This document shows, piece by piece, positions 625 through 18,077 of a stretch of DNA of 38,753 nucleotides. The stretch is from contig CAZRPR010000003.1 of NCBI GenBank assembly GCA_964602125.1, positions 1-38,753 of the forward strand, given 5' to 3'. Position numbers and translations under genes: made by a program. The DNA is from an uncultured Candidatus Saccharibacteria bacterium. GTDB taxonomy: Bacteria > Patescibacteriota > Minisyncoccia > CAIUEV01. Position 1 is the first letter of the stretch. Every line of letters begins with the position of its first letter. The notes below the pieces were generated by a model. The model had not been told where the DNA came from. It ran no database searches and saw only the letters and a list, made by a program, of their open reading frames with translations.

Positions 625-658
625 GACTCTCTCCCAAAAGGAGGGAGTCGTTTTTTTT
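625..658 (+). terminator. Intrinsic terminator: 10-bp stem (gactctctcc / ggagggagtc, one G-U pair), loop caaaa, then g + T8
   Basis: Hairpin and T8 run read directly. The T-run overlaps the stop codon of the convergent MazF-like ORF. Confidence 0.7.
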
Positions 659-1049: not shown

Positions 1050-1204
1050 TCTCCATAAATTAATTTATTTTCTCATCACCCTAAACCCAAATAAAAAAAC
1101 TAAGAAATAAAATTATTAAATTAAAAATAGATTTTTATAATCGATGCGAAAAACATTGACTGGATTTGATTTTTCAGGTAGTCAGAATACTGGTTTTATT
1201 TTTT

Positions 1205-1783: not shown

Positions 1784-1834
1784 GGGTTGTTTTTAAGGAA
1801 TTATAAGTTGTTTCAATGCGCTCTTATGTAATCG

Positions 1835-3664
1835 CTACTTTCTTGCATTTTCATTGACTGAAGAGAAAGAAAGTCTGAGATAGTATTTTTTAATTTTTTC
1901 AGCCATCATTTTTTTTCTTTCCTCTAGGAATTCTTTGTAGTTATCTATGTCCATTTCAAAGATCGTCCTTGGAATGCAATTTTCTTCAAGGTTTCTGTAT
2001 AATTCTTGAGTATTTGTGATACTGCCATATTTCAATTCACCCCCATTACATTGACCCAGCACCTCGTTCATATACTCCCTTGGTGATTTTTTCCCAATCC
2101 GAATGTTAATTTCAGATTGAGCATAAACAAAATTAGAGATTTGGTTATAGTCCCCTCTTGAAGAAAATTTCCTTTTCAAGTATTCTTTTGGAAAAATATG
2201 ATGAATATCACCTCTAAGACTAATTAAATTTCCAACCGTGATATCTCTTGAAAGAAAACCTCTGTTGTTATCTTTAATTTGAGCCGCAAAGAAAACGCTT
2301 AAAAAAGGACTGGAAATAATAGATCTGTTTAAATTTCCAACTAGCCCAACGCTCCAAAAAGTTTCCGAAAGTTCAGCTGCCTCGATTGATTCTAAATATT
2401 CTTTGACTCCCAGTTCGGATATTTTTTTGATATCGAAATCAATTTGAGACTCGGGAGAGCCGGAATATCTTCCTGTTAAGATTGACATTACAAACCAACG
2501 CTGAACATATCTAGCAACCAAAGCCTCGTCCATTTTTTGGTCTCGTAACTTGAGATAAAGAATGTAGGCAAAATTAAGAGTGTTTTGAGAGCTAATCAAA
2601 TCTTGCTCAATAAATCCGGAGGATTTGATAATCATCACAAAGCGCTTAAAGTGAGTTTCATTAACAAAATCAAGAACACCTCGGCTTAGTCTCTGGAAAG
2701 AATCATCCATAATTTCCTGTTCAAAAGTCCGAGTTTCAAAATTTCTTCCGGACAGCAAACTCACCAAATCGCTCATCTTGCCTCTTTCAAATTCCTTAGT
2801 GAAACTCACCCGCAAAACATCGGAATAGTTAGGATCATATAAATCATCTTTTTCTTTTCTCAACCATCCGATTTTATTGTAATATTCGGTGTTAACGAAA
2901 CATTTATCATTTTCACTTATATTCTTATAGAATTTAGGTTCTTTGGCTAAATGACAAAAATAATCAATACACTTTCTTAAATTAACCCCGAAGTCATCTT
3001 CAACTTCGTAGGATGCAATTTTTGACATTGCAAAATCAGCTTGGCTCAAAACAACTCCTTCTGAGTTTATTCGGATAAATATCTCTGTTACAGTTTCAAT
3101 ATCTAAATTAGCGTTAAGCTCAATGAACCCAACCGGCTTATTATTAATATCAAGTAATTTTCCAATATTTGTTCCAACTAGATTCTGATCGATTTCTGGA
3201 TTTTTCTCACAATATTCTTTTACCGATCCGAACAATCCGTCTCCCCGGTTCATTAGTTCAGCAATATCCGGAATCCAAGAATGGTCTTTCGTGATTGCTG
3301 GGGTCAGGGTTGCAAATTCTTCTTTAACTGGGTGAAAGGATATTTTAACATTTTGCTCCTTATACTCTTTGTCAATAATTGACTCACCCAAAATAGCCGC
3401 TCTTAAAGCCGTTATTCTCTGTTGACCGTCGATTAGAACCATCTTGCCATTTGAAAGAGTTCCGTCTTTCAAACGCACATCCGGATTTTTCCAAGCGATA
3501 ATATATCCGACAGGATATCCTTGATAGAGAGAGTCTATTAAGTCTCTAATTTTTGTCGTGTCCCAAACAAAAGGACGTTGAATTTCCGGTATGGCAATAC
3601 TTCCCGTTTGAACCAAGGAAAGAATGTTGCTGATTAAATACTGATTTACGCTGTATTTTTGCAT
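1835..3664 (-). CDS. DUF262 + DUF1524 (GmrSD-like / BrxU-like) putative modification-dependent Type IV restriction nuclease
   Basis: N-terminal IPEIQRPFVWD and LIDGQQRITAL (DGQQR, ParB-like NTPase motif of DUF262). C-terminal GDIHHIFPKEYL (His-Me finger of DUF1524). Confidence 0.8.
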   Translation of the reverse strand: MQKYSVNQYLISNILSLVQTGSIAIPEIQRPFVWDTTKIRDLIDSLYQGYPVGYIIAWKNPDVRLKDGTLSNGKMVLIDGQQRITALRAAILGESIIDKEYKEQNVKISFHPVKEEFATLTPAITKDHSWIPDIAELMNRGDGLFGSVKEYCEKNPEIDQNLVGTNIGKLLDINNKPVGFIELNANLDIETVTEIFIRINSEGVVLSQADFAMSKIASYEVEDDFGVNLRKCIDYFCHLAKEPKFYKNISENDKCFVNTEYYNKIGWLRKEKDDLYDPNYSDVLRVSFTKEFERGKMSDLVSLLSGRNFETRTFEQEIMDDSFQRLSRGVLDFVNETHFKRFVMIIKSSGFIEQDLISSQNTLNFAYILYLKLRDQKMDEALVARYVQRWFVMSILTGRYSGSPESQIDFDIKKISELGVKEYLESIEAAELSETFWSVGLVGNLNRSIISSPFLSVFFAAQIKDNNRGFLSRDITVGNLISLRGDIHHIFPKEYLKRKFSSRGDYNQISNFVYAQSEINIRIGKKSPREYMNEVLGQCNGGELKYGSITNTQELYRNLEENCIPRTIFEMDIDNYKEFLEERKKMMAEKIKKYYLRLSFSSVNENARK

Positions 3665-3726
3665 GTTGATAAATAAATAAATAATTATTCTAATTTTCCA
3701 ATCATGGTTTTTTGTAATTTAAAAAA

Positions 3727-6681: not shown

Positions 6682-6682
6682 A

Positions 6683-8812
6683 TTATTTGGTTACTATAAA
6701 TGGTTTACTTTCATTTCCATGCTTGTCAATCGCAATGACCGCGATTTTTTTCTTGGCCGATTCGTTCAGTGTAAAAAATCCCTCAGCATTTATATCTTTA
6801 GCAAAAACGGTCTTATCCATGTCGAAGGGTTTACCCACTTCATGATTAACATCGACCAAAAGCATAGCCAGACCCTCCAGACCCGGAAAGCGATTGCCTT
6901 CTTTGTTTAAAATTTTGGTTTCAAATTTGGTGATTTTTAGTCCTGGCTCATCACGTAAGATTTCAATCTCCACGTCCTCGTTAAAATAAAAAGCAGTAGA
7001 GGTAATAAGTTCGTTGACTGCTCCTTGTGAAGCTGGTTGTTCATGAAGCTCCAAGTGACGCGAAACATCTTCGAGTACCTTGTATGGGAAAGTTAGGAAT
7101 TTGAAAATCACTTCTTGACCCCCAGGATTTTTGAGCCTGGTGTCACCAATGTTAGTGCAATGTTCTGGAACGATAATATGATATTCTCTATGCAAACGCC
7201 CAGCACCTTGAGTGATAATGCTTTGCAAATAATCTTCATCAATTTTTACATTCTTAAAATGATGTTCGTCCCAAACCGGAAACACCTCCACTGGCGCACC
7301 ATCTTTTTCGGCATATATATTCGTAAGTTTTGTTTTACTGGCTTTTCCTTCATCGCGAACCAACTGAAACAAGCCTAAGACGAAAGCAATATAAGCATTT
7401 TTATGCTCTGGTGTGCCAAGTGCCATCACATGAGAGAAATCATAAGCACCAGCAGAAATAACGGAAAATGGTTTTGGATCTTTACTATATGAATCACCTT
7501 TTTTTACAATAATTTTATCGGCATCATCTTTTTCATCCACTAAGGCTTTACTTTCGCCTATACGAAGCATACGACGTTGTTGCGTATATATCGCATGCTT
7601 TCCAAAATCACAAGAAATCCATCGTCTTCCAAGTTTTTCAGCAACAGCAGGCGCAGATCCAGATCCAGCAAAACAATCTAAAACTATATCACCTGGATTA
7701 GACGAAGCCAACACAACCCTATCTAGAAACGCCTCTGGTTTTTGAGTTGGATAAAAACAATTTTCAAGTGCGCCGCCCTGCACTGGCGAAATATCAACCC
7801 ATATATCCTGCAATGGCACCCCCCTACCCTCATCTAAATATTTTTTTCTTTGCGGGACAGTGCCTGGATTCGTTTGTATTATTTCCCCAGCATCAAGTAA
7901 TTCTTGCATTCTCTTTCTGGAATACATCCAGTATCTAGTAACGCCCATAACCTCATATCGTGGATTTCCATTTGCCGCACCTCCTGGTCCAGCCATTGTT
8001 ACGAGCCTATAAACTCTGCCATCATTATCTGTATATTTATAAAAATCTTTTATATATTTTTCAGAATACGGTGTATAAATGCTATTCAAAGTAAAATTTT
8101 CACTTTTTCTATACAAAAGTATCACGTCATGCAATCGTCCAAGGTGTTTAGCACCTTGCCCCGAATCACCGTGTGAAAAAGTGCGCTTCCAAATAATTTC
8201 ATTTACAAAATTTTCCTTACCAAAAATTTCATCAAGCGTTATTTTAATACCATGGACCATTTTTTGATCTAAATGAACATATATACTACCATCTTTATGC
8301 AATATTTCAGACAAAAGCAACAACCGTTCGCGTAATGTTTCTATAAATTCGGAAGTAGCAATTTTATCATTATAACTTCTCTCCCCATCCTTCCCACCAA
8401 AATCACTCTTGGTAGCAAACGGCGGATCAATATAAATTAATTTTACTTTCCCCTTCACCTTGCCTTTGATTAGTGGATCTTCATCACGATAACAAGTTTT
8501 CAAAAACTGCAAATTATCACCTTGCACAATCATATTCTGCCACTCACCTTCCTTGGTCTCGCCAAAACTTCTCACCACTTGCAGTGGCGCTGCTCCAATG
8601 CCTGCTCCCGCCTCAGCCAAAATTGCTGCCTTGCTCCTCTTACCCGCATATTCAAGCGTTGGAATTTTGGCACGATCTAGTGCCTTCACATCAAACTTTT
8701 CAGCTGTGCCAGGGAAAAGTTTGGTCAGAAAATCAGGCGATGGCTCAACCCCAGCGTTTATAGCTTCTAGTAATTTGATTTTGTCTTCGTCGGTGAGATT
8801 TATTTTTGGCAT
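6683..8812 (-). CDS. mod: Type III R-M Mod subunit, beta-class N6-adenine/N4-cytosine DNA methyltransferase
   Basis: Motif IV LIYIDPPF precedes motif I VLDCFAGSGSA (beta-class order). Size and position upstream of res are typical of a mod-res operon. Confidence 0.85.
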   Translation of the reverse strand: MPKINLTDEDKIKLLEAINAGVEPSPDFLTKLFPGTAEKFDVKALDRAKIPTLEYAGKRSKAAILAEAGAGIGAAPLQVVRSFGETKEGEWQNMIVQGDNLQFLKTCYRDEDPLIKGKVKGKVKLIYIDPPFATKSDFGGKDGERSYNDKIATSEFIETLRERLLLLSEILHKDGSIYVHLDQKMVHGIKITLDEIFGKENFVNEIIWKRTFSHGDSGQGAKHLGRLHDVILLYRKSENFTLNSIYTPYSEKYIKDFYKYTDNDGRVYRLVTMAGPGGAANGNPRYEVMGVTRYWMYSRKRMQELLDAGEIIQTNPGTVPQRKKYLDEGRGVPLQDIWVDISPVQGGALENCFYPTQKPEAFLDRVVLASSNPGDIVLDCFAGSGSAPAVAEKLGRRWISCDFGKHAIYTQQRRMLRIGESKALVDEKDDADKIIVKKGDSYSKDPKPFSVISAGAYDFSHVMALGTPEHKNAYIAFVLGLFQLVRDEGKASKTKLTNIYAEKDGAPVEVFPVWDEHHFKNVKIDEDYLQSIITQGAGRLHREYHIIVPEHCTNIGDTRLKNPGGQEVIFKFLTFPYKVLEDVSRHLELHEQPASQGAVNELITSTAFYFNEDVEIEILRDEPGLKITKFETKILNKEGNRFPGLEGLAMLLVDVNHEVGKPFDMDKTVFAKDINAEGFFTLNESAKKKIAVIAIDKHGNESKPFIVTK

Positions 8813-8823
8813 AGGATTTTTGA

Positions 8824-11800
8824 TTATTGTTCGAGATTAAATTTATTTGCAAGTAAACGATCCAGCACCGTCACTTGCGTATCCCCTGGTTGTTCTGGGC
8901 GCAAAGTGAATTTATTGATGCGCAAAAAACGATAACCATAGCTTTCAAGTTCTAGGGTGCGACCATTGTCGTAATCCGTGAATTCTCGTGACAACGCATG
9001 GCGTGAAACTTCAGATGGATCTTTGAAATGAAATTCAATGCCATCATATTCCAAAATCAAAGTTTGCTCCTTACCACCTTTGGACAAAACCAACAAAAAG
9101 TCCACACGATACTTGGGCATCTGAGCTGCAAACTCAGTGCGCAAATAATTGCCAATTGGAAACTGTGGTACTAGACGGATGTTGGCTTTATTATTTTTGA
9201 AAAATTCAGTGTTAAGCACCAATTGATATAGTTCCTTTTCCTTGGGTGAATCAAAGATTGATTCATCTGCAATAAAGAAATCATTTTTCTCCGCTTCCTC
9301 TAAAGTGTTACGATAATGTTTCAGGGCATTGCCTAGTTGTGTATTGCTAAAATTTTCAATGTCTTGGCTAAGCACAAACACCATCGTGTCTTTGGCACGA
9401 GAAAAACCAACATTGAGCCGTTGCATTTTAAGCGAACGGATATTGTCAGCCGTACCACCGATGACCGGATAAATTGATCCGAGATTAGCATTACTTATAG
9501 CCTTATTTTCCACAAAAGAATAATAAACAATATCTCTTTCCTCACCCTGCACGTCTCCTACGAACCATACTTCCAGCTTGTGGTCGCGTTTCAGTTGCGG
9601 TAAGTTTGTCCGTTCGTTCAACGTCTCCTCCAATCTTATCTGTTGTTCTCTGAATGAAGTAATGACTCCAATCGTACCCTTGAAACCACCTGCTATAATA
9701 TTTTGGATATCTGTAATAATAGCATCAATTTCATCTAAATTTAAGTTAGCGCTGGCGTTACCTAAAGTTTTCACTGTTAGAAATCGCAATGTTTCTCCAA
9801 TCGGCTTGGTACGAATACGATTCATAATAAGTTCTTGCTGAGCAACTTTGTAGAATTTTTCATTAGAGTAGCTGATAATCTCCGGGAAACTACGAAAATG
9901 CTCCTTGAGTGATGTGGTGTAGTTGGCAATTGCTTTAGCAAAAGACAATGTCGAGGTTCTAATATTGAAAGTTTTGAGCCAAAGTACTGCTCCCGGATTA
10001 TCCTGCGGACGAATCAAGGCTTCGCTAACTAAATCATCAGTGTTAATATCACGAGCTACTTCGTCTACTAGCTCTTTTTTAGCCGAATCAGAGACTGATA
10101 CCTTGTAATCATCAGCATAAGCGTTTACAATTTCCGTAAAATAACTAGCCGAATATTTGGTAGAAACATTAATTGCACTAACTGCGCCATATTGATATTC
10201 GTCCCCAAAAATCACTACTTGTTTAGCGCGCAGAATTAATGAAATAGAATCAGCAATGGAAACTTGTGAAGCTTCGTCAATAATTAAAACATCAATCAAG
10301 TCTTCTTGCATGGGAAAATGTTTTGACAGGGTCGATGGCTCAGCAATAATAACCGAAATACCCTCAAGCAAAGTCTTGGTTTGGTCAGCTGTGAAACGCT
10401 TACCACCCTCAAAAGAAATTTTGAGTTGTTGCATAACACCTGAGTATTGATTGAGTTTTTTGAGACGAAGGTCGTTTTTGTGCTCAAGCTCTTTCTGTTT
10501 TAGACGTGAATACTCCCTAGTATCAGTTGTGAAGTCGTCGATCAAGGTGCTCGATTGAGATAGTCTGGCGTGTAGAAGAATCCATTTAAAAACCAATTTT
10601 TCTGTTTCACTACCATACTTTAGTCTACCAATAGTTGATATTTGATCCTGAATAACTCCAATGACCTCTAGAATAGTTCCGTAATGATCGAACAATTTAT
10701 TGATTGATTCAAGGGTCTCTATATTAAATTTATCAAGGGCTGTCTGATATTTTTGCACCTCGGTGAACATTTCCGAAATAGATAAATTAGCATTGCCTAC
10801 TAATTTTTGATATTCTTCAACCCAAACTTTGTATTTACGCAAATTAATTACTGCTTCAGCACGCTCTAAACCAGCCGACAAATCATTAACTGTTGCAAAA
10901 TTAAAATCTATTCCAGCAATTTTACTTATCTCGGTTAGTGGCTCAGTGTATTGTAAAGAAAGAGTTTTTCTAATAATCTCTTCTAGCTGCTCTTTGCTGC
11001 TTGCCTTTCCTGTTATTTTTGCTATGAAACCAGCGGACGCGTCTCTAACGGAAAGTTCTTTGACAACAGCGTCCTTCTTAAACAGGTTTGCCATTTCATG
11101 AATTAGATTAGAAAGATCTTCTGGAACGCTAGCGAATGAAGTTTCTACTGAGAGGATTTCTGCTGGTGTTGTATTTACATGCTCACAGGCTTCAATAAAT
11201 TTATGTAGTTCATGCTTGCGAGTCACAATAAATTCATATTCCGCTAGAGAAGTGGAAATAAAAATATTTTCAGTAGCAAGATCGACAAATTTTTCCAAAA
11301 TTTCCATATTTATTTCAGTTTCTAGCCTCAAAGTTGTGTCCAGCAAGCTCCCTATTTTGTCCGCCTTTTTAAGTTTTTCATTAATTTGTGAAAATTCCAC
11401 TTGATCGATCAATCTTTGTGATTCATTTTTCGCCGAGCTTAAACGAGATTGCAAAATACTTTCTAGATGTTTAGCAATTTTATTGCTGTCTTCGGTAATG
11501 GCTTTGTCGTTGTATTCCAGTGTTCTTTCAGTTGCACCGTTAACAACTGCTGAGGTTAAAGTGTTGCTAAAATTATTAGCAGACCCAGTTTCAATGTCCA
11601 TGCGCACTATTGACGGCTTAGCTTGAGGATGAAGTGCTTTAAACTTGTCTGTCATCATGCGATCAATTACATCAAGCGCCTCTTTTTTGTGAGATGTAAC
11701 TACCACGGTCTTGCCATCTTCATTAGCTTTGTACGCTAGTGCCGCAATTGTATGGGACTTACCAGTCCCGGGAGGACCATCAACTACAATTATTTTATTC

Positions 11801-13083
11801 TTGGTATTCTCTAGGGCAAGCAGGATTCTTTTCTGTGAATTATTAAGGGGGATCGGACCATCTGACATATAGCGTTTTGCGCTATTCGATGGATAACTAT
11901 CGTTAAATTTACGAATTACATCGTCTGTATAATTCGGTACTGTTCCAGAAATATATCCATCTATAAATGATCCGAATTGACTATGACCACCTGCGTCAAT
12001 ATTGGTCATTATCTCTGAATAATCCAATAATTTTTTGTCTTCATTTGCTACAATTTGAAAACCAATACGACCACTGATGGCTGGAAAATTTTCTTCATCA
12101 TGAATTATCTCTTTGAATTGTGGTTCTAAAATAAAATTTTGATTGATTCCATATTGAGCTTGCAAAAAAACTTCTATCGCTCCAAGAGGTGCACTTGCCT
12201 GCTCAATTGAAGATGCACGTGGAGTAGTCAAAACTCGATCAAATTTGAAAAAATTGATAGCAGGCACATTCAACAATAGCAAATTTCTTGGAAAAGAAAT
12301 TGTAATCTCAGTATTGGACAAGCGCATGTCCACTTCAATAAAATATAGCGGAAAAGAATCATCGCCACGAGAAATTGTGTGAAAGAAAATATAAAAAGTC
12401 CCTAGCGTCGAAAAAGCTTGATAGTTATGTAAATTTAAAAATAAATCATACAGGACAATGTCTTTGATTTCTTTTTTAAAATATTCTGTAACTTTTTTTA
12501 CATACTCATCTGGCTCAACTTGATTTTTTGCTAACTTCTTTAAAGCATCTAAGTGTGTCTTAAGATAAGTATTTAAACCAAAACTTGATTGAGGAAAACT
12601 GGTTGCTCCACTTTCTTCTTTAAATTGCAATAATAATTTTTCTTGCAAATCCAAAATAGCTTCCTCTAGTGTTTTACGTATCTTTATGTTGTATAATCTG
12701 ATTGCTTCATCCCAAGCAATTTTCGAAACATCCAATTCCACATTATTTGCTGATCGAGTCTCGATGCCTAAACGTTCTAGTTCATCTTTTAATAATTTTT
12801 CCAAGCACTCCTTGTCAAGATTACTGCTTATTGCTTTTGTTATTGCTAAGATTATATCTTGATTAGCTAGTGATAATGTGTATTGACCAGGTTTAATTTT
12901 GATATCAACTGATTTGCCAACTCTAATTGATTCCAGTAATAATTCCTGAAATTCCGGGTATAATGGCAGATCTAAGGTCAGCTCGTTATTGGTCCAACGA
13001 TAACTAACCATTCGCTTAAAGTTAAAGCGAGTCTCAGTAAAAGTAGCAAAATAATTGAGAATAGTTTTCGAGAGATTGCTCAT
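8824..13083 (-). CDS. Large Upf1-like SF1 helicase (AAA_11/AAA_12 type) with DUF4011-like N-terminus and C-terminal DUF559/Vsr-like endonuclease domain (HheA-like)
   Basis: Walker A VVDGPPGTGKSHT (about aa 436), VLIIDEASQ (D936), VIFGDEYQ, VQGEERDIV, LNVGFSRAKD. C-terminal YRVDFLL...ILEYDGIEFH...GYRFLRI matches the DUF559 pattern. Confidence 0.8.
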   Translation of the reverse strand: MSNLSKTILNYFATFTETRFNFKRMVSYRWTNNELTLDLPLYPEFQELLLESIRVGKSVDIKIKPGQYTLSLANQDIILAITKAISSNLDKECLEKLLKDELERLGIETRSANNVELDVSKIAWDEAIRLYNIKIRKTLEEAILDLQEKLLLQFKEESGATSFPQSSFGLNTYLKTHLDALKKLAKNQVEPDEYVKKVTEYFKKEIKDIVLYDLFLNLHNYQAFSTLGTFYIFFHTISRGDDSFPLYFIEVDMRLSNTEITISFPRNLLLLNVPAINFFKFDRVLTTPRASSIEQASAPLGAIEVFLQAQYGINQNFILEPQFKEIIHDEENFPAISGRIGFQIVANEDKKLLDYSEIMTNIDAGGHSQFGSFIDGYISGTVPNYTDDVIRKFNDSYPSNSAKRYMSDGPIPLNNSQKRILLALENTKNKIIVVDGPPGTGKSHTIAALAYKANEDGKTVVVTSHKKEALDVIDRMMTDKFKALHPQAKPSIVRMDIETGSANNFSNTLTSAVVNGATERTLEYNDKAITEDSNKIAKHLESILQSRLSSAKNESQRLIDQVEFSQINEKLKKADKIGSLLDTTLRLETEINMEILEKFVDLATENIFISTSLAEYEFIVTRKHELHKFIEACEHVNTTPAEILSVETSFASVPEDLSNLIHEMANLFKKDAVVKELSVRDASAGFIAKITGKASSKEQLEEIIRKTLSLQYTEPLTEISKIAGIDFNFATVNDLSAGLERAEAVINLRKYKVWVEEYQKLVGNANLSISEMFTEVQKYQTALDKFNIETLESINKLFDHYGTILEVIGVIQDQISTIGRLKYGSETEKLVFKWILLHARLSQSSTLIDDFTTDTREYSRLKQKELEHKNDLRLKKLNQYSGVMQQLKISFEGGKRFTADQTKTLLEGISVIIAEPSTLSKHFPMQEDLIDVLIIDEASQVSIADSISLILRAKQVVIFGDEYQYGAVSAINVSTKYSASYFTEIVNAYADDYKVSVSDSAKKELVDEVARDINTDDLVSEALIRPQDNPGAVLWLKTFNIRTSTLSFAKAIANYTTSLKEHFRSFPEIISYSNEKFYKVAQQELIMNRIRTKPIGETLRFLTVKTLGNASANLNLDEIDAIITDIQNIIAGGFKGTIGVITSFREQQIRLEETLNERTNLPQLKRDHKLEVWFVGDVQGEERDIVYYSFVENKAISNANLGSIYPVIGGTADNIRSLKMQRLNVGFSRAKDTMVFVLSQDIENFSNTQLGNALKHYRNTLEEAEKNDFFIADESIFDSPKEKELYQLVLNTEFFKNNKANIRLVPQFPIGNYLRTEFAAQMPKYRVDFLLVLSKGGKEQTLILEYDGIEFHFKDPSEVSRHALSREFTDYDNGRTLELESYGYRFLRINKFTLRPEQPGDTQVTVLDRLLANKFNLEQ

Positions 13084-13171
13084 AATATTTTTGTTCTTTT
13101 TTATTAAATATTTTTCCTTAATATCCTACACCCAACATTCAATAACATCCAAAAAACACTGTATTGAAAAG

Positions 13172-13318
13172 CTATCTAGCTTTTTTCACAAACTGAATTT
13201 CATAAACCGGAATCGCTTCCGGATTTTCATGGATGTATTTTTGTAAGTAGTCTTCACTCTCAAAAGAAGATTTAATCAGTTTTTGCGTTCCGTCTTTACT
13301 GGAAATAATAATACTCAT
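13172..13318 (-). pseudogene. 48-codon ORF (MSIIISSKDGTQKLIKSSFESEDYLQKYIHENPEAIPVYEIQFVKKAR), possibly the N-terminal remnant of a NucS/DUF91/Shedu-style PD-(D/E)XK nuclease
   Basis: Translated by hand. The pattern F.SE..LQ.YI.ENPE.I resembles N-termini of that nuclease class from memory. It sits 43 nt downstream of repeat copy 1. Confidence 0.25.
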
Positions 13319-13360
13319 TTAGTCGAATTATTAAATTATTTTCATTCCGGTGCCTACATC

Positions 13361-13392
13361 CTCACCTTACCCCCCAAAATTAATTAAATCAA
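13361..13392 (-). repeat. Direct repeat copy 1 (32 nt): ctcaccttaccccccaaaattaattaaatcaa. The minus strand reads TTGATT-17-TAAGGT.
   Basis: Matches 16181-16211 except for one extra C. Overlaps the stop codon of the 195-aa ORF. Confidence 0.9.
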
Positions 13393-13976
13393 AACTTAAT
13401 TTCCCCTCCCATCAAGCCTTGGTGCTTGCTTTTAATTCTTTTTTGGAAGTTTTCCAACAAAACCAAATATTCATTCACTTGCTCGACGGTGTAAGCTTCG
13501 TATTCCTTGTGTTCCAGGCTGGTGATGTGAACGAAGTTGCGGACTTTTCGGAGGTTGTGGAGGGCGTTTTTCATGGAGCCGTCGAGGAGGCCGTGCCGGA
13601 AGCCAGAGTCGATTAAGTAAATAAAATTCTCGTTTTCTTCAAAGCTGACGTTGCTTTTTTTGCTAGATAGTTGGAAGAGGAGGTCGTAGAGAGCGCTTTC
13701 CATGACGCCGGCGATGGTGATGAGCATATTTTTGCAGTGGAGAGATTCGATGGTGAGATACATTTGGTAGTCGTTGTAGAGATGGGCCATGTATTCCAAG
13801 TATTGGAGGTGGTAGGCGATGTTCTCTCGGGCGGGGAGATATTCGATGAAGGACCACTCTGCTTTGTAGTGATTGGCGCTTTGGGGGTGGCGGTCTTTGG
13901 GCAGGAGGATTTTCTTGTCGGAGTTGTCCTGCTTTTTTTCCTCGTCAAAGCTGACTTTTTTCTTGAGTAATTCCAT
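13389..13976 (-). CDS. Hypothetical 195-aa protein; tentative HEPN-like motif LRKVRNFVH
   Basis: Its ATG directly abuts the upstream gene's stop (TAAATG). R-x6-H / RN..H near the C-terminal third is only loosely HEPN-like. Confidence 0.6.
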   Translation of the reverse strand: MELLKKKVSFDEEKKQDNSDKKILLPKDRHPQSANHYKAEWSFIEYLPARENIAYHLQYLEYMAHLYNDYQMYLTIESLHCKNMLITIAGVMESALYDLLFQLSSKKSNVSFEENENFIYLIDSGFRHGLLDGSMKNALHNLRKVRNFVHITSLEHKEYEAYTVEQVNEYLVLLENFQKRIKSKHQGLMGGEIKF

Positions 13977-15236
13977 TTATTTTTTCTTTATTGAAATAGA
14001 TTTTTCCTCGACGGGCGGGGAGATTTTGAGAATTTTTTTGGTCAGCTGTTTTTCCAGGAGGTCGTCGTCAAGGAGTTTTTTGATTTTGCCGAAAGAAAGC
14101 TCGGAAAGCTCTTTCCAGTGTTTGGTGTCTTGGAGTAGTTTTTCCAGTTTTTGATACGCCTCCGGTTCAATGGATTTTCGGGGAAAGGCAAAATCTTTAT
14201 TCTTTTTGATGCAAACGAGGTGACTGCCACCGTCGAGGGTTTCTAGTTTGTTGGCTTTGGCGTATTGAAAGATTACATCCTCGATACGCTCAAGCTCCTG
14301 CTCAACAATCCAGGCTTTTTCTCTGGCCTTTCGGTTGATTTCCGATCTCTTGAGGACAAACGCAATATATTTTTTAGCCAGTTGAACCCCGCTGTCTTTG
14401 AGATACTTATTGGCCGGCAGACTGACAACTTTGAAAAGATGTTTCTTTTTGGGACAATGCTCCCAAAAACCGCACCAATCACATTTAGTTTCTTTGGCGG
14501 GAAAATCGTTTTTGCGTTCGGCTAAATTAATTTCGGCAATCAACTGGAGGATTTCTTCCTTTAACTCTGCTAATTGCTTATCCGTTCGCTCCGAGAAGAC
14601 ATCCTCCCCAAAGGCGACGTAATGCCAAACCAAACTCACTTTTTTGGCCTCGTGAAATTTTTGCTTAACGGCCATGGAATAAAGAGCCAGTTGACGATCT
14701 TTGTCGGCGTATTCTTGATCCATAATGGCTCCTGTTTTGTAGTCATGAACGGAATAGTGGCCTTTTTTGTCGCGGGCTAAGCGATCAATAAAGCCGGTTA
14801 TTTTGTACTTATTCCAATTGAGAGAAATTTCTTTTTCCACTCCCAGTGTTTGGTCTTGATTAAAAGGATAGAATTTTCGATAGTAATTGGCAATGCATTT
14901 TTTACCAAGTTCGAAATAGTGTTCTTTGCTAAATTCTTTGTTGTTGATAGCGATGGTATCCTCCCAATCTTTTTTCCAGTTCTGCTCGTAAAATTCCAAG
15001 AGTTTTTCCAAAGTGGTTATTTTGGTTTTTATAATCCCTTTATACAGAAATTCCATGGTGTCATGGACCAAGCCCCCCATGAAAGCTTCAATGGTCGTGC
15101 TTTCTTCGGCTGGCTTTAATCGGTCAAGATATTTATATTTATACTGAAGCGGACACCTTTCATAAACTTGCAGCTTGGAATGAGAAAATTGTTTCATTAA
15201 GTTATATAGATCTATTAAATTATTCCACCCTTTCAT
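13977..15236 (-). CDS. PD-(D/E)XK nuclease, RecB/AddB/Cas4-like with a four-Cys cluster, plus a C-terminal extension of about 140 aa of unknown function
   Basis: YERCPLQYKYKY (first Cys), GFIDRL...SVHDYKTG (D...D-x-K), QLALY, CDWCGFWEHC (C-x2-C-x5-C). I prefer the ATG at 15236, preceded by GGAGGT, over the TTG at 15263 used in the ORF track. Confidence 0.8.
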   Translation of the reverse strand: MKGWNNLIDLYNLMKQFSHSKLQVYERCPLQYKYKYLDRLKPAEESTTIEAFMGGLVHDTMEFLYKGIIKTKITTLEKLLEFYEQNWKKDWEDTIAINNKEFSKEHYFELGKKCIANYYRKFYPFNQDQTLGVEKEISLNWNKYKITGFIDRLARDKKGHYSVHDYKTGAIMDQEYADKDRQLALYSMAVKQKFHEAKKVSLVWHYVAFGEDVFSERTDKQLAELKEEILQLIAEINLAERKNDFPAKETKCDWCGFWEHCPKKKHLFKVVSLPANKYLKDSGVQLAKKYIAFVLKRSEINRKAREKAWIVEQELERIEDVIFQYAKANKLETLDGGSHLVCIKKNKDFAFPRKSIEPEAYQKLEKLLQDTKHWKELSELSFGKIKKLLDDDLLEKQLTKKILKISPPVEEKSISIKKK

Positions 15237-15253
15237 CTTACCTCCAAACAACG

Positions 15254-15279
15254 TAAGGAACAATAATTATTGTTCCTTA
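15254..15279. repeat. Perfect 26-nt palindrome taaggaacaataattattgttcctta between the Bro-N gene stop and the nuclease gene start
   Basis: The sequence equals its own reverse complement. Located in the 57-nt intercistronic gap. Confidence 0.9.
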
Positions 15280-15293
15280 TCAAGGGGAAAAAG

Positions 15294-16145
15294 CTATTCT
15301 TTGCTTTTATTTTTTTTCAACATCAAAACTTGCCGAGCGTTGAGTGGACTCACTACTTGCTTACCGGTTTCAAGCTCCAACTCCATACGAGCTCCTCTAG
15401 CTATTTTCCCGCCACGCTTTGCAACCTCTTCGTGCTCCGGAAATGATTTGGGATTAGTAATTTCAGAGATTTCTTTAGTGGATAATTCGGCCAACATATT
15501 CAAAACCAACTCTTTATTGGTCATATTGTCACGCAAATTTTCTTTTTTTAAACCTTTAAATTTTTTATATTCTTTAGCGGTTTTATCCGCCCATGTTTTA
15601 TAAATAATATCTGTAAGGGTAGCGAATTCCAATCCTTCCCTGAGTCCATGCTTTCTCCATTCATCAGTGAGTTCTTTACGAATTTCGATACTTTTTAATC
15701 TTTGATTTATCCAATTATCTGAATATCCCAAATTTTTATAGTCCCACATTGCTTGCTTTATGGAAAGTTCCGGATCTTGTATTTGGTCAAGTCTTTTTTT
15801 AGCAATTTCCGACAGCCACACTTTGAAAGGTTCGGCTTTTTTAGAAGGAATTGACTGAATGAGGCGAAAAACCTGCTTTGTATCTACCACATCTGTCAAG
15901 CGCATCTTTCCGTCCGGAGCTTTTATTTTCAACTGGTTAGTGCTACTAACCAGTTCGCTTCCTTCGGTTTTGAGTTTATTTTTGAGCCACTTCCAATAAT
16001 TTCTAACTTTTTGATAGTCATTTTGATCGGTAAGTACGGTAATAATGTCCAGAACTGAGAACCACCATTTTTCCATTTCTTCATCCCAAACAGTCCTAAC
16101 TTTCTGTTTTTCGAATAGCTGAATCGAATTTTTCATCTTATTCAT
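15294..16145 (-). CDS. Bro-N domain protein of the DinD (DNA-damage-inducible protein D)-like family
   Basis: LFEKQKVRTVWDEEMEKWWFSVLDIITVLT, IQSIPSKKAEPFKVWL, IQDPELS, ELTDEW, KKFKGLKKENLRDNMT and GGKIARGARMELE all match the widespread Bro-N/DinD-like family as I recall it. Confidence 0.75.
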   Translation of the reverse strand: MNKMKNSIQLFEKQKVRTVWDEEMEKWWFSVLDIITVLTDQNDYQKVRNYWKWLKNKLKTEGSELVSSTNQLKIKAPDGKMRLTDVVDTKQVFRLIQSIPSKKAEPFKVWLSEIAKKRLDQIQDPELSIKQAMWDYKNLGYSDNWINQRLKSIEIRKELTDEWRKHGLREGLEFATLTDIIYKTWADKTAKEYKKFKGLKKENLRDNMTNKELVLNMLAELSTKEISEITNPKSFPEHEEVAKRGGKIARGARMELELETGKQVVSPLNARQVLMLKKNKSKE

Positions 16146-16180
16146 TTAAACATTAAAAGTTTACCATCGTGATACTTATT

Positions 16181-16211
16181 CTCACCTTACCCCCAAAATT
16201 AATTAAATCAA
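16181..16211 (-). repeat. Direct repeat copy 2 (31 nt): ctcaccttacccccaaaattaattaaatcaa. The minus strand reads TTGATT-16-TAAGGT.
   Basis: Located 36 nt upstream of the Bro-N/DinD-like start codon. Confidence 0.9.
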
Positions 16212-16299
16212 GGCGGACGATTTGTTGGGATGATAAATATACTGTATGACTTTTTCACAGGGATAAAAAGCGATTTTGTTGATTAAGGAGGAAAACAAA

Positions 16300-16473
16300 A
16301 TGCGAGAGTTGATTCTTTGGAACATGCTGTTTGGCAGTGGATGGATCAAAAAGAGAAGAACCGGCTTTTGGGGCGTTTATGATCGATTAGCCGTTTCAGT
16401 AGAAGTGATCGTCGGCTTTATCATCGCCAACATAGTCATTTTTTTCATTGAACTTCACGTCATTAATCGCTAA
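16300..16473 (+). CDS. 57-aa small membrane protein (MRELILWNMLFGSGW...VIVGFIIANIVIFFI...)
   Basis: ATG preceded by AAGGAGG with a 7-nt spacer. One C-terminal TM helix. Followed by a strong terminator. It is the only plus-strand gene in the island. Confidence 0.5.
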   Translation: MRELILWNMLFGSGWIKKRRTGFWGVYDRLAVSVEVIVGFIIANIVIFFIELHVINR

Positions 16474-16491
16474 AATGTTATTGTTTCCCCT

Positions 16492-16520
16492 AAAGGCAGA
16501 GAAGATTCTCTGCCTTTTTT
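16492..16520 (+). terminator. Intrinsic terminator (aaaggcagagaa / ttctctgccttt arms, then a T-run)
   Basis: 12-nt perfect inverted arms at 16492-16503 and 16506-16517; T-run to 16520. Confidence 0.75.
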
Positions 16521-16561
16521 AAGTGCTAGCTTAAGGTTGTTATACGGTAAACAAAAAAGAT

Positions 16562-16590
16562 TTGACGGTACTGAAAAAAATCAGTACAAA
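16562..16590 (+). promoter_or_regulatory. Candidate sigma70-type promoter TTGACG-17 nt-TACAAA, pointing into the 3' end of the NYN gene
   Basis: Hexamers and 17-nt spacing read directly. Function not demonstrated. Confidence 0.3.
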
Positions 16591-16597
16591 TTAAGTA

Positions 16598-17161
16598 TCA
16601 AGACGAAAGGGGATCCGAAAGGTGTTGGTGCCTAAGGAGCCCCTTTTTTATTTGCCATACTTTTATTTTTTTCTTGATATCTTTACTGTCCAGAGAATCA
16701 AAAAATTCCGAACCTAGTTCTTTATAGAGAGAGGAGGCGAATTTTTTGTTAGGGAAAAGGATCTTGCCGAATTTATGTTCTTCAATGAGAAAATCAACGA
16801 GCATTTTATAGTCTCCGTCTCCTGAAACCAAGATAATCTTGCCGAAGTCTTCTCTTTGGTAGATTTTTTTCATTATCTGAAAGACAATATCCGAATCGAC
16901 ATTCCCCTTCTTCTTGCCGGTCATGGCGCTGTTATGCTCCCGAAACATTAAAATAAAGCCCGCTTCCTGAACGCTGGTATATATTTCCTGATGAATTTCA
17001 TCCATGCAGCCTAAAAAGTAGTAGGCGGTTTCGACATGATACCTGTCTTTCAAAAAAACTCGAAATTTTTTCAAATCAATTCTCCATGGCCTTTTCAGTT
17101 TAGTCGTTCCCATGTGGAGATTCTGACCGTCAACAAAGGCATAATTGTTCTGATTTTCCAT
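16598..17161 (-). CDS. NYN domain (LabA/DUF88-like, PIN-related) putative RNase
   Basis: N-terminal YAFVDGQNLHMG and central ILVSGDGDY are the conserved acidic motifs of NYN/LabA proteins. Confidence 0.8.
   Translation of the reverse strand: MENQNNYAFVDGQNLHMGTTKLKRPWRIDLKKFRVFLKDRYHVETAYYFLGCMDEIHQEIYTSVQEAGFILMFREHNSAMTGKKKGNVDSDIVFQIMKKIYQREDFGKIILVSGDGDYKMLVDFLIEEHKFGKILFPNKKFASSLYKELGSEFFDSLDSKDIKKKIKVWQIKKGLLRHQHLSDPLSS
16606..16649 (+). terminator. Extended hairpin (ggggatcc...ggagcccc with inner aggtg/gtgcct pairing) followed by T6, lying inside the last ~17 codons of the NYN ORF
   Basis: Stem with one mismatch plus T-run 16644-16649 on the plus strand. On the minus strand it is followed by tttcgtctt. 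Confidence 0.45.
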
Positions 17162-17350: not shown

Positions 17351-17423
17351 GGGCTCGTAGCTTAGTTGGTAGAGCGCCTCCATGGCATGGAGGAGGTCAG
17401 GGGTTCGAGTCCCCTCGAGTCCA
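17351..17423 (+). tRNA. tRNA-Ala (anticodon GGC), no encoded CCA
   Basis: Cloverleaf folded by hand: acceptor GGGCTCG/CGAGTCC with G3:U70, anticodon loop AUGGCAU, T-loop TTCGAGT, discriminator A. Confidence 0.92.
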
Positions 17424-17498
17424 CAAATTAAAAACACTCTTAAATTAAAAAAGCCGTAAAAACATCTTATATTCTGTTCTTACGGCTAAATGAATGAT

Positions 17499-18077
17499 CT
17501 ATCTTTGCCAAAGTTCCCCTCCCAGGAAAAGTTGATTTTTTTCCAAATCTTTGATTTGCCCTCTTTCATCGAGAGCGTAGGCCCGACTAACAGTGTAGAC
17601 TTTTTTACTAAAATCAAAAATTGCTTCAACCAAGCCAATCTCTCCATTGCCAAAATAGGGTGGGCGAGATTTCTTTTTCAAATCAATGAATTCTCTTAGA
17701 GACGCTTCGTCTTTGAAAACTTTAATAACCATGCCCTCATGCTTTCGGAAAGATCCTCCAAAAAAACCGGCAGAAAAAGAAGTTACGGAGCGCATATAAA
17801 CCGGTTTTTCCCAGTTTTCCTGCATGAAACTCCAAAAATGATCATTCGAAAGACCGTAAATTTTGTTGAAGAACCAAACTTGGCTCAAAGTTTCAAAGCA
17901 GGAAGACGCTTCTTGGAAGGAATAGTTAATAATCGATTCTTGAAAAAGAACATCCTCTTTGCTCTCTTCGGCGTAAAGTATTCTTTCGGAAAAAAGAAAT
18001 GTTAGAAGAAATAAGAAGATAATAAAACAAGCAAGTCCTAAAAAGTGATCAGAAAAAAACCTTTGCTTTGTTGACAT
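17499..18077 (-). CDS. Hypothetical membrane-anchored/secreted protein
   Basis: N-terminal hydrophobic helix LGLACFIIFLFLLTFLF. GGAGGAAAG Shine-Dalgarno upstream. No motif recognised. Confidence 0.5.
   Translation of the reverse strand: MSTKQRFFSDHFLGLACFIIFLFLLTFLFSERILYAEESKEDVLFQESIINYSFQEASSCFETLSQVWFFNKIYGLSNDHFWSFMQENWEKPVYMRSVTSFSAGFFGGSFRKHEGMVIKVFKDEASLREFIDLKKKSRPPYFGNGEIGLVEAIFDFSKKVYTVSRAYALDERGQIKDLEKNQLFLGGELWQR

Follow-up and report, generated by a model that had tools for sequence, protein, structure and literature searches.

CPR bacteria (Patescibacteria) are highly abundant episymbionts, most of them uncultured. Little is known of their antiviral repertoire, and the standard defence finders recognize few features in their genomes. 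The DNA analysed here, a 38,753-nt stretch from a Candidatus Saccharibacteria genome (hereafter the window), carries a gene for a Cas4-like nuclease followed directly by a gene for a 195-aa protein, which raises the question of what these two proteins are and whether they act together. A preliminary description, made from the sequence alone, regarded them as an obligately coupled pair and, with the Bro-N gene upstream, as a possible three-gene module. The reading that we prefer, at a probability of roughly 50%, is a two-gene cassette within a defence island, in which the nuclease is backed up by a latent HEPN RNase in the manner of PrrC. The features of the locus are as follows.

15294-16145, minus strand (that of the pair, upstream of it): Bro-N gene
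15254-15279, no strand assigned: perfect palindrome of 26 nt between the Bro-N stop and the GGAGG of the nuclease gene
13977-15236, minus strand: nuclease gene, 419 aa (406 aa with the alternative start, ATG 15197)
14451-15191, minus strand: nuclease domain, residues 16-262, with C28, D151, D165/K167, and Q182/Y186 inside it
14454-14483, minus strand: C252-x2-C255-x5-C261, which with C28 (15153-15155) makes up the predicted 4Fe-4S ligand set
13980-14441, minus strand: C-terminal domain of the nuclease, residues 266-419, a 48-residue helix and then a small alpha/beta module
13974-13979, minus strand: TAAATG junction, the ATG of the HEPN gene directly after the TAA of the nuclease gene
13389-13976, minus strand: 195-aa HEPN-fold gene of an unannotated family
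13698-13700, minus strand: E93, helix-2 acidic residue of the HEPN fold
13527-13553, minus strand: LRKVRNFVH, residues 142-150, predicted HEPN active-site motif R146-N147-x2-H150, plus R143
13172-13318: 48-aa ORF between the HEPN gene and the helicase gene
8824-13083, minus strand: SF1 helicase gene, 1419 aa, starting 305 nt downstream of the 195-aa gene

The coordinates, reading frames, and minus-strand orientation of both genes were confirmed, as was the TAAATG junction. The preliminary description took this junction to imply obligate co-expression, which does not follow: most window genes are without a Shine-Dalgarno sequence and tight or overlapping junctions are frequent in the window, so that TAAATG alone is no proof of obligate translational coupling. 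A Shine-Dalgarno sequence was found in only 2 of 29 window genes, and a missing one was rejected as a sign of translational coupling because it is shared by the other 27. Adjacency alone is likewise no proof of functional coupling, since tight junctions are the norm in this compact genome. The nuclease gene has two candidate starts; the ATG at 15236 is preceded by GGAGG, and the homologues begin at M14 (15197), with residues 1 to 11 having a pLDDT of <50. The palindrome upstream is possibly a terminator or an operator and would mark where the transcription unit of the pair begins. The GC content is 0.43 to 0.46 over the pair versus 0.30 to 0.39 in the flanks. Promoter-like hexamers are also present in the 305-nt gap on the downstream side. 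The 48-aa ORF in this gap has no homologue in any of the fetched loci and was rejected on that ground as a conserved antitoxin-like partner.

The 195-aa protein has 94 homologues at E ≤ 1e-3, which shows that the ORF is a real gene. Its close family is almost confined to Patescibacteria, and the superfamily, consisting of 567 unannotated clusters at 50% identity, is centred on CPR bacteria and extends to archaea. The protein has no match in Pfam, NCBIfam, or PHROG, the HEPN models of Pfam included. The AF2 model is all-alpha (pLDDT 86.7, pTM 0.84), with helices at residues 47-69, 74-106, 118-127 (an insert helix), 133-146 (+148-152), and 164-188. In a Foldseek search of the PDB, the top ~30 matches are HEPN domains (probability ~1.0, TMt 0.6 to 0.67, E 0.015 to 1, every E-value being above 0.001), the best of which are HEPN toxins (HepT). 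The preliminary description had guessed at HEPN from LRKVRNFVH and had named structure prediction as a check; the check returned a HEPN-like fold, with LRKVRNFVH as the conserved core of the family. [quoted passage not shown] E93, within helix 74-106, pairs in the HepT alignment with the Glu of helix 2; its context is E93-x3-Y97 and not the typical Ex3[KR]. In a wide alignment of 82 sequences with a mean identity of 12%, E93 (78/82), R146 (79/82), N/D147 (76/82), and H150 (81/82) are near-invariant, and N147 is invariant in 54 close homologues. The spacing R143-x6-H150 fits the canonical Rx4-6H, but R143 is an arginine in only 43 of the 82 sequences, and the near-invariant pair R146-x3-H150 falls short of the canonical form by one residue. 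The predicted catalytic set would be E93 plus R146-N147-x2-H150, that is, a HepT-like RNxxxH shortened by one residue.

Sequence profiles connect this superfamily weakly to known HEPN families. DUF4145 is matched by 5 of the 54 close members (best E 0.044) and 5 of the 82 remote members (best E 2.3e-5), and HepT-like (E 0.0023) and HepT-like_2 (E 0.0083) are matched by one member each. Against PDB sequences, the wide profile places HepT at the top with E and RN..H aligned, but at an E-value of 0.36, and the close-family profile returns only noise. The only PADLOC match, to RTasCOG2852 (E 1.3e-4), was rejected as weak and probably spurious; this model represents a Vsr-like protein (COG2852) that occurs close to UG26 reverse transcriptases (PMC9226505), and such a protein is incompatible with an all-alpha fold. 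Taken together, a HEPN fold is supported for the 195-aa protein. That E, R, N, and H are near-invariant speaks for catalysis, and the protein is most likely a metal-independent RNase.

Comparisons with characterized HEPN proteins show both shared and distinct features. HepT (SO_3166, PDB 5yep; MntA-HepT, 6m6w/7bxo) gives the best structural and the best, although weak, sequence-profile matches, but the 195-aa protein is ~50 residues longer, with a motif one residue shorter. HEPN-MNT pairs have an adjacent MNT antitoxin, whereas no nucleotidyltransferase gene is found beside the 195-aa gene in the window or in ~38 other loci. An R-M-linked HEPN RNase model has been proposed (Anantharaman et al. 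2013, PMC3710099), and the window gene, like those of the DUF4145-like HEPN clade concerned, has restriction endonuclease-fold DNases, helicases, and R-M operons as neighbours. Although remote superfamily members match DUF4145, the 195-aa protein differs from this clade in lacking a Pfam HEPN match, in its R-H spacing of x3 instead of x4-6, in having a conserved 45-residue N-terminal segment (D17, N18, K21, K22, P31, W41, F43) and a helix-1 block (N52/Y55/Q58), and in its near restriction to Patescibacteria. A DUF4145-type HEPN protein acts as an abortive-infection RNase in RAZR (PD-T7-4), in which R and H are needed for defence (PMC13017515). RAZR is a similarly divergent HEPN protein and works as a stand-alone latent RNase (PMC13017515), but its N-terminal Cys4 zinc ribbon and its R-x7-H are both missing from the 195-aa protein, whose N-terminal 46 residues are Cys-free. 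Some remote superfamily members have Cys-x2-Cys pairs. In PrrC-EcoprrI and RloC, a HEPN anticodon nuclease is kept latent under an R-M system, and we propose the same logic for the 195-aa protein; PrrC and RloC, however, have an ABC-ATPase N-domain and are encoded inside type I R-M operons, whereas the HEPN protein of the window is small and its gene abuts that of a Cas4-like nuclease.

Residues 16-262 of the nuclease match PF12705 (PDDEXK_1) with an E-value of 8.8e-32, and some family members match PF10926. The full PD-(D/E)XK set and the four-Cys signature noted earlier are borne out by the family alignment, in which C28 (in YERCPLQY), D151, D165-Y166-K167, Q182/Y186, and C252-x2-C255-x5-C261 are invariant across 55 sequences. 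The AF2 model (pLDDT 93.1) matches AdnA/B, ACE1, AddB, Dna2, RecE, and Cas4 in Foldseek (E 3e-11 to 1e-4). By analogy with Cas4, AddB, and Dna2, the four cysteines are predicted to bind a 4Fe-4S cluster. The nuclease shares RecB-type motifs, the four-Cys cluster, and the fold with Cas4, AddB, AdnAB, Dna2, and ACE1, but unlike them it stands alone, is not fused to a helicase, and has an extra C-terminal domain of 154 residues. It is not Cas4 proper, as it scores 50 bits against the Cas4 equivalog TIGR00372 (cut-off, 65) and neither an array nor cas genes were found: there is no CRISPR repeat array within the 38.7-kb window, and a Pfam/PADLOC scan covering genes at 657-26731 returned no cas matches beyond the nuclease's own Cas4-like ones. 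The preliminary description likewise noted no adjacent cas genes, but it was inaccurate on the absence of an adjacent helicase, since the SF1 helicase gene lies 305 nt downstream on the same strand. These data support a stand-alone Cas4/AddB/Dna2-type four-Cys PD-(D/E)XK enzyme, which most likely degrades or resects DNA ends.

The C-terminal extension noticed earlier is real and without a recognized motif, but it is not peculiar to the window protein. It is a family-wide conserved domain (pLDDT ~94 in the AF2 model), kept at full length with 97% coverage in most of 193 nuclease homologues and conserved in alignments of 42 to 55 homologues. Sequence searches of Pfam and the PDB returned no match to this domain, a weak Pfam "Interferon" hit (E 0.012) being dismissed, and no solved relative was found; the PDB fold matches of the nuclease span only ~260 to 283 columns. 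Phage RecB-like/DUF2800 exonucleases (~390 aa) resemble the nuclease in length and two-domain layout and align over 420+ columns, but with an rmsd of 17 to 25 Å and an identity of 16 to 18%.

The two genes do not form an obligate pair. Only 1 of 62 other nuclease loci with room for a HEPN gene has one, and upstream of the HEPN genes stand at least 20 unrelated genes, most of them for restriction-type nucleases. An abutting or overlapping nuclease-HEPN junction is present in the window, L006, L007, L009, and L048, the exact abutting form being kept in six loci. The two proteins diverge congruently, from 78/78 down to 56/68% identity, and two diverged copies of the pair (L006 and L009) occur in a single MAG. 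The pair is thus co-inherited in one Patescibacteria subclade only. Downstream of the pair, the window's HEPN subclade has GmrSD or genes of 296, 179, and 140 aa; the SF1 helicase gene of the window, two genes downstream of the nuclease gene, is not conserved with the pair, and no conserved helicase neighbour was found in 87 nuclease family loci. The genes downstream of distant nuclease homologues show no relation to the HEPN family by hhalign. One of these, in L042, has a canonical IRNHLAH motif and is likewise unrelated by hhalign.

The HEPN family shows a strong, same-strand, short-gap linkage specifically to nuclease or R-M genes. Upstream of the HEPN genes are PDDEXK_1 (×5), GmrSD_N (×3), NYN (×3), TdeIII, NERD, DUF2779, DUF4268, NucS_C, and YhcG_C, and downstream are PDDEXK_3, PDDEXK_4, and GmrSD_N (×4). 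Homologues of the 195-aa protein do adjoin PD-(D/E)XK nucleases in other genomes, as the preliminary description required. Among 115 ORFs within ±3 kb of HEPN genes, the commonest domains are GmrSD_N (8), PDDEXK_1 (6), ResIII (5), N6_N4_Mtase (4), and HNH (4). Non-nuclease genes also precede the HEPN gene, namely, those for an ABC exporter (1-nt overlap), Fic, and a lipase. In three loci, the order of genes recalls that of the window: L036 has NYN-like, HEPN, a 4-nt gap, a 1413-aa helicase (42% identical to that of the window), and a methyltransferase (48% identical); L017 has NYN, HEPN, a methyltransferase (42%), and a restriction endonuclease (32%); and L130 has NYN, ResIII/RE_endonuc, a 177-aa gene, and HEPN. 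The HEPN proteins of these loci are only 36 to 46% identical to the window protein, which indicates that the NYN-HEPN-R-M synteny is old or recurrent. The HEPN gene is the head of a recurrent NYN-HEPN-helicase-methylase-restriction backbone.

The defence setting suggested by the preliminary description is upheld, as the pair lies in a dense chromosomal defence island of this Patescibacteria (CPR) genome. The island contains MazF, HEC-05, a type III-like restriction endonuclease and methyltransferase, a Mokosh/Hhe-like helicase, PDC-S13, and NYN, and housekeeping genes lie on either flank. A literature search on the definition of Hhe and on HEPN defence in CPR bacteria found nothing usable.

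In the cassette that we favour, the nuclease and HEPN genes would be co-transcribed and inherited as a unit in one subclade, with the DNA nuclease as a first line against invading DNA. The latent HEPN RNase would cut cellular or phage RNA once its DNA-targeting partner is blocked or overwhelmed, leading to growth arrest. More generally, the HEPN gene is a promiscuous add-on beside many restriction-type nucleases and R-M operons, and this promiscuity makes the PrrC/EcoprrI paradigm the likeliest mechanism. The gene identities, the fold, the conserved residues, and the synteny counts are direct results, whereas the RNase activity, its latency, a physical or functional coupling, and a defence role of the nuclease are inferred. 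The pair would then be a local example, in a new family, of the known habit of HEPN RNases of residing beside restriction-type nucleases, and not a new three-gene system. A bolder and more tentative extension is that the 195-aa protein founds a large unnamed HEPN family with a shortened R-N-x2-H, which serves as a plug-in second-line RNase for at least 20 DNA-targeting effectors. Such effectors, joined upstream or downstream, might include Cas4-like, GmrSD, NERD, TdeIII, and NucS-like proteins and type III R-M with an SF1 helicase. Whichever nuclease is co-expressed might keep the RNase latent, and the shared HEPN gene might anchor recombination that swaps the neighbouring defence genes.

Several other explanations draw on the same observations. 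The genes may be independent single-gene modules packed together in compact CPR islands, with the nuclease working alone and the HEPN protein acting by itself as an abortive-infection RNase, which would sense a phage product directly, as in RAZR, with its 45-residue N-terminal segment as sensor or regulator. The 61 of 62 nuclease loci without a HEPN gene, the unrelated upstream and variable downstream neighbours of the HEPN gene, its conserved N-terminal block, the tight junctions general in this genome, and the precedent of single-protein DUF4145 HEPN defence in RAZR (PMC13017515) all speak for this possibility. We nevertheless consider it doubtful, as the abutting junction is kept in six loci and both proteins diverge congruently, the short-gap linkage is specifically to nuclease and R-M genes, and the window HEPN protein has no zinc finger or other recognizable sensor domain. 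Alternatively, the HEPN gene might belong to the downstream helicase-methylase-type III-like restriction endonuclease operon as part of a split Hhe-like or R-M-linked system, with the nuclease and Bro-N having arrived secondarily. The backbone synteny of L036, L017, and L130 fits this idea, as do the matches of the window helicase to the Mokosh, Hhe, and ProA models, but the helicase scores stay well under the family cut-offs of Hhe and ProA. Moreover, the 305-nt gap with its 48-aa ORF and promoter-like hexamers separates the HEPN gene from the helicase gene, and the window HEPN protein falls in the subclade that travels with the nuclease, whose downstream genes differ; this arrangement therefore seems unlikely.

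It is improbable that the locus has no defence role, with the nuclease being a housekeeping DNA-end-processing or repair enzyme of small genomes and the 195-aa protein a non-catalytic RNA or nucleotide binder or a plain toxin. The nuclease family is mostly found alone beside housekeeping genes (HAD, TPR, M17 peptidase, UDG, and permease), so it may have no defence function and does not require a HEPN partner; it is also wide and constant in length across CPR, DPANN, and Omnitrophica, and its structural relatives are repair nucleases (AdnAB, AddB, Dna2, MGME1, and Exo5). On the other hand, the nuclease family, too, has GmrSD_N as its most frequent neighbour, the window copy lies in a dense defence island, one MAG has two diverged pair copies, R-M and nuclease genes dominate the HEPN neighbourhoods, and the conserved E, R, N, and H point to catalysis. 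The three-gene system of a Bro-N sensor, a PD-(D/E)XK DNase, and a HEPN RNase, put forward in the preliminary description, is very improbable and largely refuted by synteny. All three genes are neighbours on one strand, and in L006 a Bro-like C-terminal fragment precedes the pair by ~1 kb. However, another gene intervenes there, and the gene directly upstream of the pair is HNH in L001/L009, a 211-aa ORF in L006 (with an N-terminus that looks DUF3800-like by eye), and GmrSD-like in L048; Bro-N is absent from this position in these loci and in L007, and it was rejected as a conserved third partner. The upstream gene was correctly recognized as Bro-N (PF02498, E 9e-11), but it is a full-length match to the single-gene PADLOC candidate PDC-S13 (E 3.7e-123; residues 5-280 versus 4-276 of 286), and the palindrome separates it from the nuclease gene. 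Finally, a remnant of a prophage recombination module, consisting of a RecB-like exonuclease and an accessory gene, is scarcely credible. The nuclease does match exonuclease families of PHROG (phrog_69, E 5e-29), and its best BFVD fold matches are phage RecB-like exonucleases, but a scan of 2.9 million IMG/VR contigs found 0 members of the HEPN family and only 2 of the nuclease family. Near the pair, there are no genes for a recombinase, SSB, or integrase and no structural genes, and housekeeping genes flank the island. The pair is thus not embedded in prophage recombination modules, a possibility that had been raised earlier, and neither family is phage typical.

The unannotated HEPN family recurs in the restriction islands of CPR bacteria, and motif-based searches would miss it because of its off-canon active-site spacing. 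The conserved two-domain Cas4-like nuclease, in turn, occurs widely in bacteria and archaea with small genomes. If the proposed latent-RNase coupling is true, the back-up suicide logic of PrrC would extend to Cas4-like and many other nucleases, and the pair would provide a compact RNase/DNase system for testing; if it is false, the analysis would still give a clean annotation of two hypothetical-protein families.

The nuclease and HEPN genes lie within a defense island of the window, which is chromosomal, with genes for DNA polymerase III delta', a PMT-family glycosyltransferase, PGI, and ArgRS from 18.2 kb onward. The island is edged by a tRNA-Ala gene (17351-17424, plus strand) on its upper side, a MazF/PemK toxin gene (657-1049, minus strand) is found near its lower end, and the island may extend past the window start. 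The main features are listed below.

657-17161: defense island, in the order MazF, HEC-05/GmrSD_N, type III-like restriction enzyme, methylase, SF1 helicase, HEPN, nuclease, Bro-N, NYN
8824-13083, minus strand: SF1 helicase, 1419 aa, AAA_11/AAA_12, with a long unannotated N terminus
13389-13976, minus strand: HEPN ORF, 195 aa
13977-15236, minus strand: nuclease ORF, 419 aa counted from the ATG at 15236
15294-16145: gene upstream of the nuclease gene, with a Bro-N domain match

The nuclease stop codon TAA (13979-13977) abuts the ATG of the HEPN gene (13976-13974) with no gap. The TAAATG fusion reported in the preliminary description is therefore confirmed, but it is a weaker sign of the obligate coexpression read from it, because a Shine-Dalgarno (SD) sequence is present in only 2 of 29 window genes and several further window junctions also abut or overlap. 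Leaders of the 29 large window genes are A/T-rich and the genome is nearly SD-less, the exceptions being the gene at 17499-18077 and the nuclease gene, whose GGAGG, a rare feature in this genome, lies five bases 5' of the ATG at 15236 and is compatible with acquisition from elsewhere. The nuclease start is ambiguous between 15236 and 15197, as homologs start at the position that corresponds to M14 (15197) and the model gives residues 1 to 11 a pLDDT of <50. Over 13400-14800, which takes in the HEPN gene and two-thirds of the nuclease gene from its 3' end, the G+C content is 0.43 to 0.46, versus 0.30 to 0.39 in the neighboring genes of the island. The Bro-N stop codon and the nuclease ribosome-binding site are separated by a perfect 26-nt palindrome, TAAGGAACAATAATTATTGTTCCTTA (15254-15279), a possible terminator or operator.

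The 195-aa protein matches no Pfam, NCBIfam, or PHROG model, and among its 94 close homologs, all named ones come from Patescibacteria and are called hypothetical. Its AlphaFold2 model (54 homologs) is confident and all-alpha (pLDDT, 86.7; pTM, 0.84), with helices at residues 47 to 69, 74 to 106, 133 to 146 with 148 to 152, and 164 to 188 and a short inserted helix at 118 to 127. In a Foldseek search of the PDB, roughly the first 30 places were taken by HEPN domains, including YutE (1ylm), the sacsin HEPN domain, the HepT toxins 5yep, 6m6w, 7bxo, and 7ae8, 1wwp, HI0074, and AF0298, with probabilities near 1 and target-normalized TM scores of 0.6 to 0.67, at E values of only 0.015 to 1. An exhaustive profile search extended the superfamily to 567 clusters at 50% identity (E ≤ 1e-3); an 82-sequence alignment of remote members (12% mean identity) shows near-invariant E93 (78/82), R146 (79/82), N/D147 (76/82), and H150 (81/82). 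HEPN domains are characterized by an Rx4-6H motif that closes helix 3, an N, D, or H as the polar residue immediately following the Arg, an acidic residue conserved in helix 2, and inserts that are frequent between helices 2 and 3 (PMC3710099). The 195-aa protein shows all of these except the R-H spacing, since its conserved pair is R-x3-H; the R143-x6-H150 spacing is canonical, yet R143 is conserved in the close family only. Weak sequence bridges are provided by DUF4145, matched by 5 of the 82 remote members (best E, 2.3e-5), and by HepT-like models, each matched by single members. A third weak bridge comes from the wide profile, which finds two HepT toxins as its top PDB sequence matches (E = 0.36, not significant by itself); in these the helix-2 Glu and LRNIaVH align to E93 and lRNk-iH of the family with a one-residue gap. 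The suspicion of a HEPN-like motif in LRKVRNFVH (residues 142 to 150) was thus right, and we conclude that the protein belongs to a true HEPN family that had gone unannotated and whose motif is shorter than that of HepT by one residue. Some remote members (e.g., P0242, P0258, and P0272) carry zinc-ribbon-like N- or C-terminal Cys-x2-Cys pairs, which recall the zinc-finger and DUF4145 layout of RAZR, and one (P0305) belongs to a Heimdallarchaeaceae MAG.

Residues 16 to 262 of the nuclease match PF12705 PDDEXK_1 (E = 8.8e-32), and C28 (in YERCPLQY), D151, D165-Y166-K167, Q182/Y186, and C252-x2-C255-x5-C261 are invariant in a 55-sequence family alignment, which indicates that the RecB-type PD-(D/E)XK motifs and four-Cys signature recognized earlier are real and under selection. 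In all, 193 members of the family could be detected in Patescibacteria, DPANN archaea, and Omnitrophica, and their length hardly varies (about 395 to 420 aa; query coverage, 97%), so the C-terminal "extension" is a 154-residue domain shared by the whole family and is not peculiar to this gene. No Pfam model matches this domain, and no solved structure is related to it in sequence. In the AlphaFold2 model (pLDDT, 93.1; very confident), the N-terminal 260 to 280 residues superpose on the nuclease domains of AdnA/AdnB, ACE1 (an Argonaute-associated Cas4-family protein), AddB, Dna2, RecE, Cas4, and MGME1 (E = 3e-11 to 1e-4), and the C-terminal part consists of a 48-residue helix (282 to 329) followed by a small alpha/beta module. 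Some predicted viral structures, those of RecB-like and DUF2800 exonucleases of about 390 aa, align over the full length, but at an rmsd of 17 to 25 Å, and a few family members also match PF10926/DUF2800. Cas4 proper was rejected (TIGR00372 score of 50 bits against a cutoff of 65); as noted before, no cas gene occurs among the neighbors scanned, and the window has no repeat array.

The association of the two families was surveyed from both sides. Among 35 genome loci and several metagenome contigs with HEPN genes, the ~400-aa nuclease precedes the HEPN gene only where the HEPN protein shares 62% or more identity with that of the window (L006, L007, L008 [cut], and L009). At the other HEPN loci, the same-strand upstream gene belongs to at least 20 unrelated clusters, including GmrSD_N (three), NYN (three), DUF4268, DUF2779, NERD, RE_TdeIII, NucS_C, YhcG_C, a 1070-aa N6_Mtase protein, a true ABC exporter, Fic, a lipase, and several unknowns, often with gaps of just -1 to +3 nt. 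The downstream side is equally variable, with GmrSD_N (four), PDDEXK_3, PDDEXK_4, DUF763, an OLD-like ATPase, or housekeeping genes; homologs of the 195-aa protein thus do adjoin PD-(D/E)XK nucleases elsewhere, the nuclease lying upstream in L006, L007, and L009 and downstream in others. On the nuclease side (87 loci, 62 with at least 600 nt downstream), the HEPN gene follows in only 1/62 loci (L048), many loci have no same-strand downstream gene at all, and neighbors are mostly housekeeping genes, with GmrSD_N (5/118) as the sole recurrent defense domain. The pair-bearing subclade keeps the junction (TAAATG, TAAtATG, or an 11-nt overlap), nuclease/HEPN identities covary between loci (78/78, 78/84, and 56-67/62-69%), and one Magasanikbacteria MAG (DAIOHD01; L006 and L009) holds two diverged copies (nuclease, 57%; HEPN, 64% identity). 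Taken together, the kept junction, the congruent identities, and both surveys indicate that the pair is a real cassette that one lineage inherits as a unit, built from two families that do not depend on each other. At L042 (5001-8194), the gene 2 nt after that of a distant nuclease homolog (P0208) encodes an unrelated protein of 169 aa with the canonical HEPN-type motif IRNHLAH, and genes for a type III methylase and an HI_1054 helicase come next; here a nuclease and a HEPN-like protein may have been paired independently.

The small HEPN genes sit beside a wide range of restriction-fold DNases, helicases, and R-M operons rather than beside methylases only. The commonest Pfam domains within ±3 kb (115 large ORFs, 35 loci) are GmrSD_N (8), PDDEXK_1 (6), ResIII (5), N6_N4_Mtase (4), and HNH (4), followed by N6_Mtase, SWI2_SNF2, and Eco57I (3 each). 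The same linkage pattern was described for at least 16 HEPN clades by Anantharaman et al. and explained, by analogy with PrrC/EcoprrI, by an RNase that is latent via a DNA-targeting partner and freed once the partner is neutralized or overwhelmed (PMC3710099). In RAZR, a DUF4145-type HEPN domain is an abortive-infection RNase that requires the motif R and H (PMC13017515). The best explanation, with a probability of about 0.5, is a cassette in which a DNA-end-degrading Fe-S nuclease is coupled to such a back-up RNase. The nuclease would degrade DNA ends, and the HEPN RNase would stay latent under its DNA-targeting partner until that partner is neutralized or overloaded. The folds, conserved residues, and synteny statistics are results of the analysis; RNase activity, its latency, and physical contact, if any, between the HEPN protein and the nuclease or its C-terminal domain are inferred.

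The two genes may instead be independent island residents, as the separate distributions of their families allow; we regard this as possible, though less likely than coupling, given the conserved junction. That the nuclease is a housekeeping repair enzyme, as its family's usual neighbors would suit, is improbable. Another reading, slightly less likely than independent residence, assigns the HEPN gene functionally to the helicase/R-M operon downstream of it. The preliminary description saw no adjacent helicase, which is inaccurate, because the SF1 helicase gene begins on the same strand only 305 nt past the HEPN gene. The window's helicase, methylase, and restriction genes recur with distant HEPN members: L036 (5168-12542) has an NYN-like gene, HEPN, 4 nt, a 1413-aa helicase (42% identity to the window helicase), and a methylase (48%); L017 (5346-11642) has NYN, HEPN, a methylase (42%), and a restriction enzyme (32%); and L130 (1899-6546) has NYN, a ResIII/RE_endonuc protein, a 177-aa gene, and HEPN. 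The window (3727-17161) thus looks like this NYN-HEPN-(1.4-kaa SF1 helicase)-methylase-type III-like REase backbone with Bro-N and the Cas4-like nuclease between NYN and HEPN, and plausible DNA-targeting partners lie on either side of the HEPN gene. The helicase matches the PADLOC MkoA/MkoC (Mokosh) and Hhe and the NCBIfam ProA/Hhe models, all far below family cutoffs, and may be a distinct helicase-nuclease defense protein; its C-terminal stretch appears Vsr/DUF559-like by eye, with no Pfam detection. Within the 305-nt gap, a 48-aa ORF (MSIIISSKDGTQKLIKSSFESEDYLQKYIHENPEAIPVYEIQFVKKAR; 13172-13318, minus strand) with promoter-like hexamers just upstream has no homolog in any fetched locus and may be a gene fragment.

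A three-gene module of Bro-N, nuclease, and HEPN, as proposed initially, is largely excluded. Bro-N matches the PADLOC candidate PDC-S13 (E = 3.7e-123), and it is not a conserved neighbor of the pair, being replaced by HNH in L001 and L009, a GmrSD-like gene in L048, and, in L006, a 211-aa ORF with a DUF3800-like N terminus (read by eye from sequence), with a Bro-like fragment further out. Even less credible is a prophage recombination module: among 2.9 million IMG/VR contigs, there was no HEPN-family locus and just two nuclease-family loci, and neither family is phage-typical. Homologs of the window's HEC-05/GmrSD_N gene (1835-3664, minus strand) with 64 to 72% identity adjoin nuclease genes in L043 (2685-5000) and L051 (5481-7274) and a HEPN gene in L012 (985-2781); the same few defense genes are reshuffled among CPR islands.

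Both families are currently annotated as hypothetical or as generic "PD-(D/E)XK family," and the HEPN family is also effectively absent from PADLOC; the R-N-x2-H spacing is outside the textbook HEPN motif. A HEPN RNase beside a restriction-type nuclease in a defense island is already established. The locus would not surprise specialists, but it adds a useful annotation and gives a lead on CPR immunity that can be tested.
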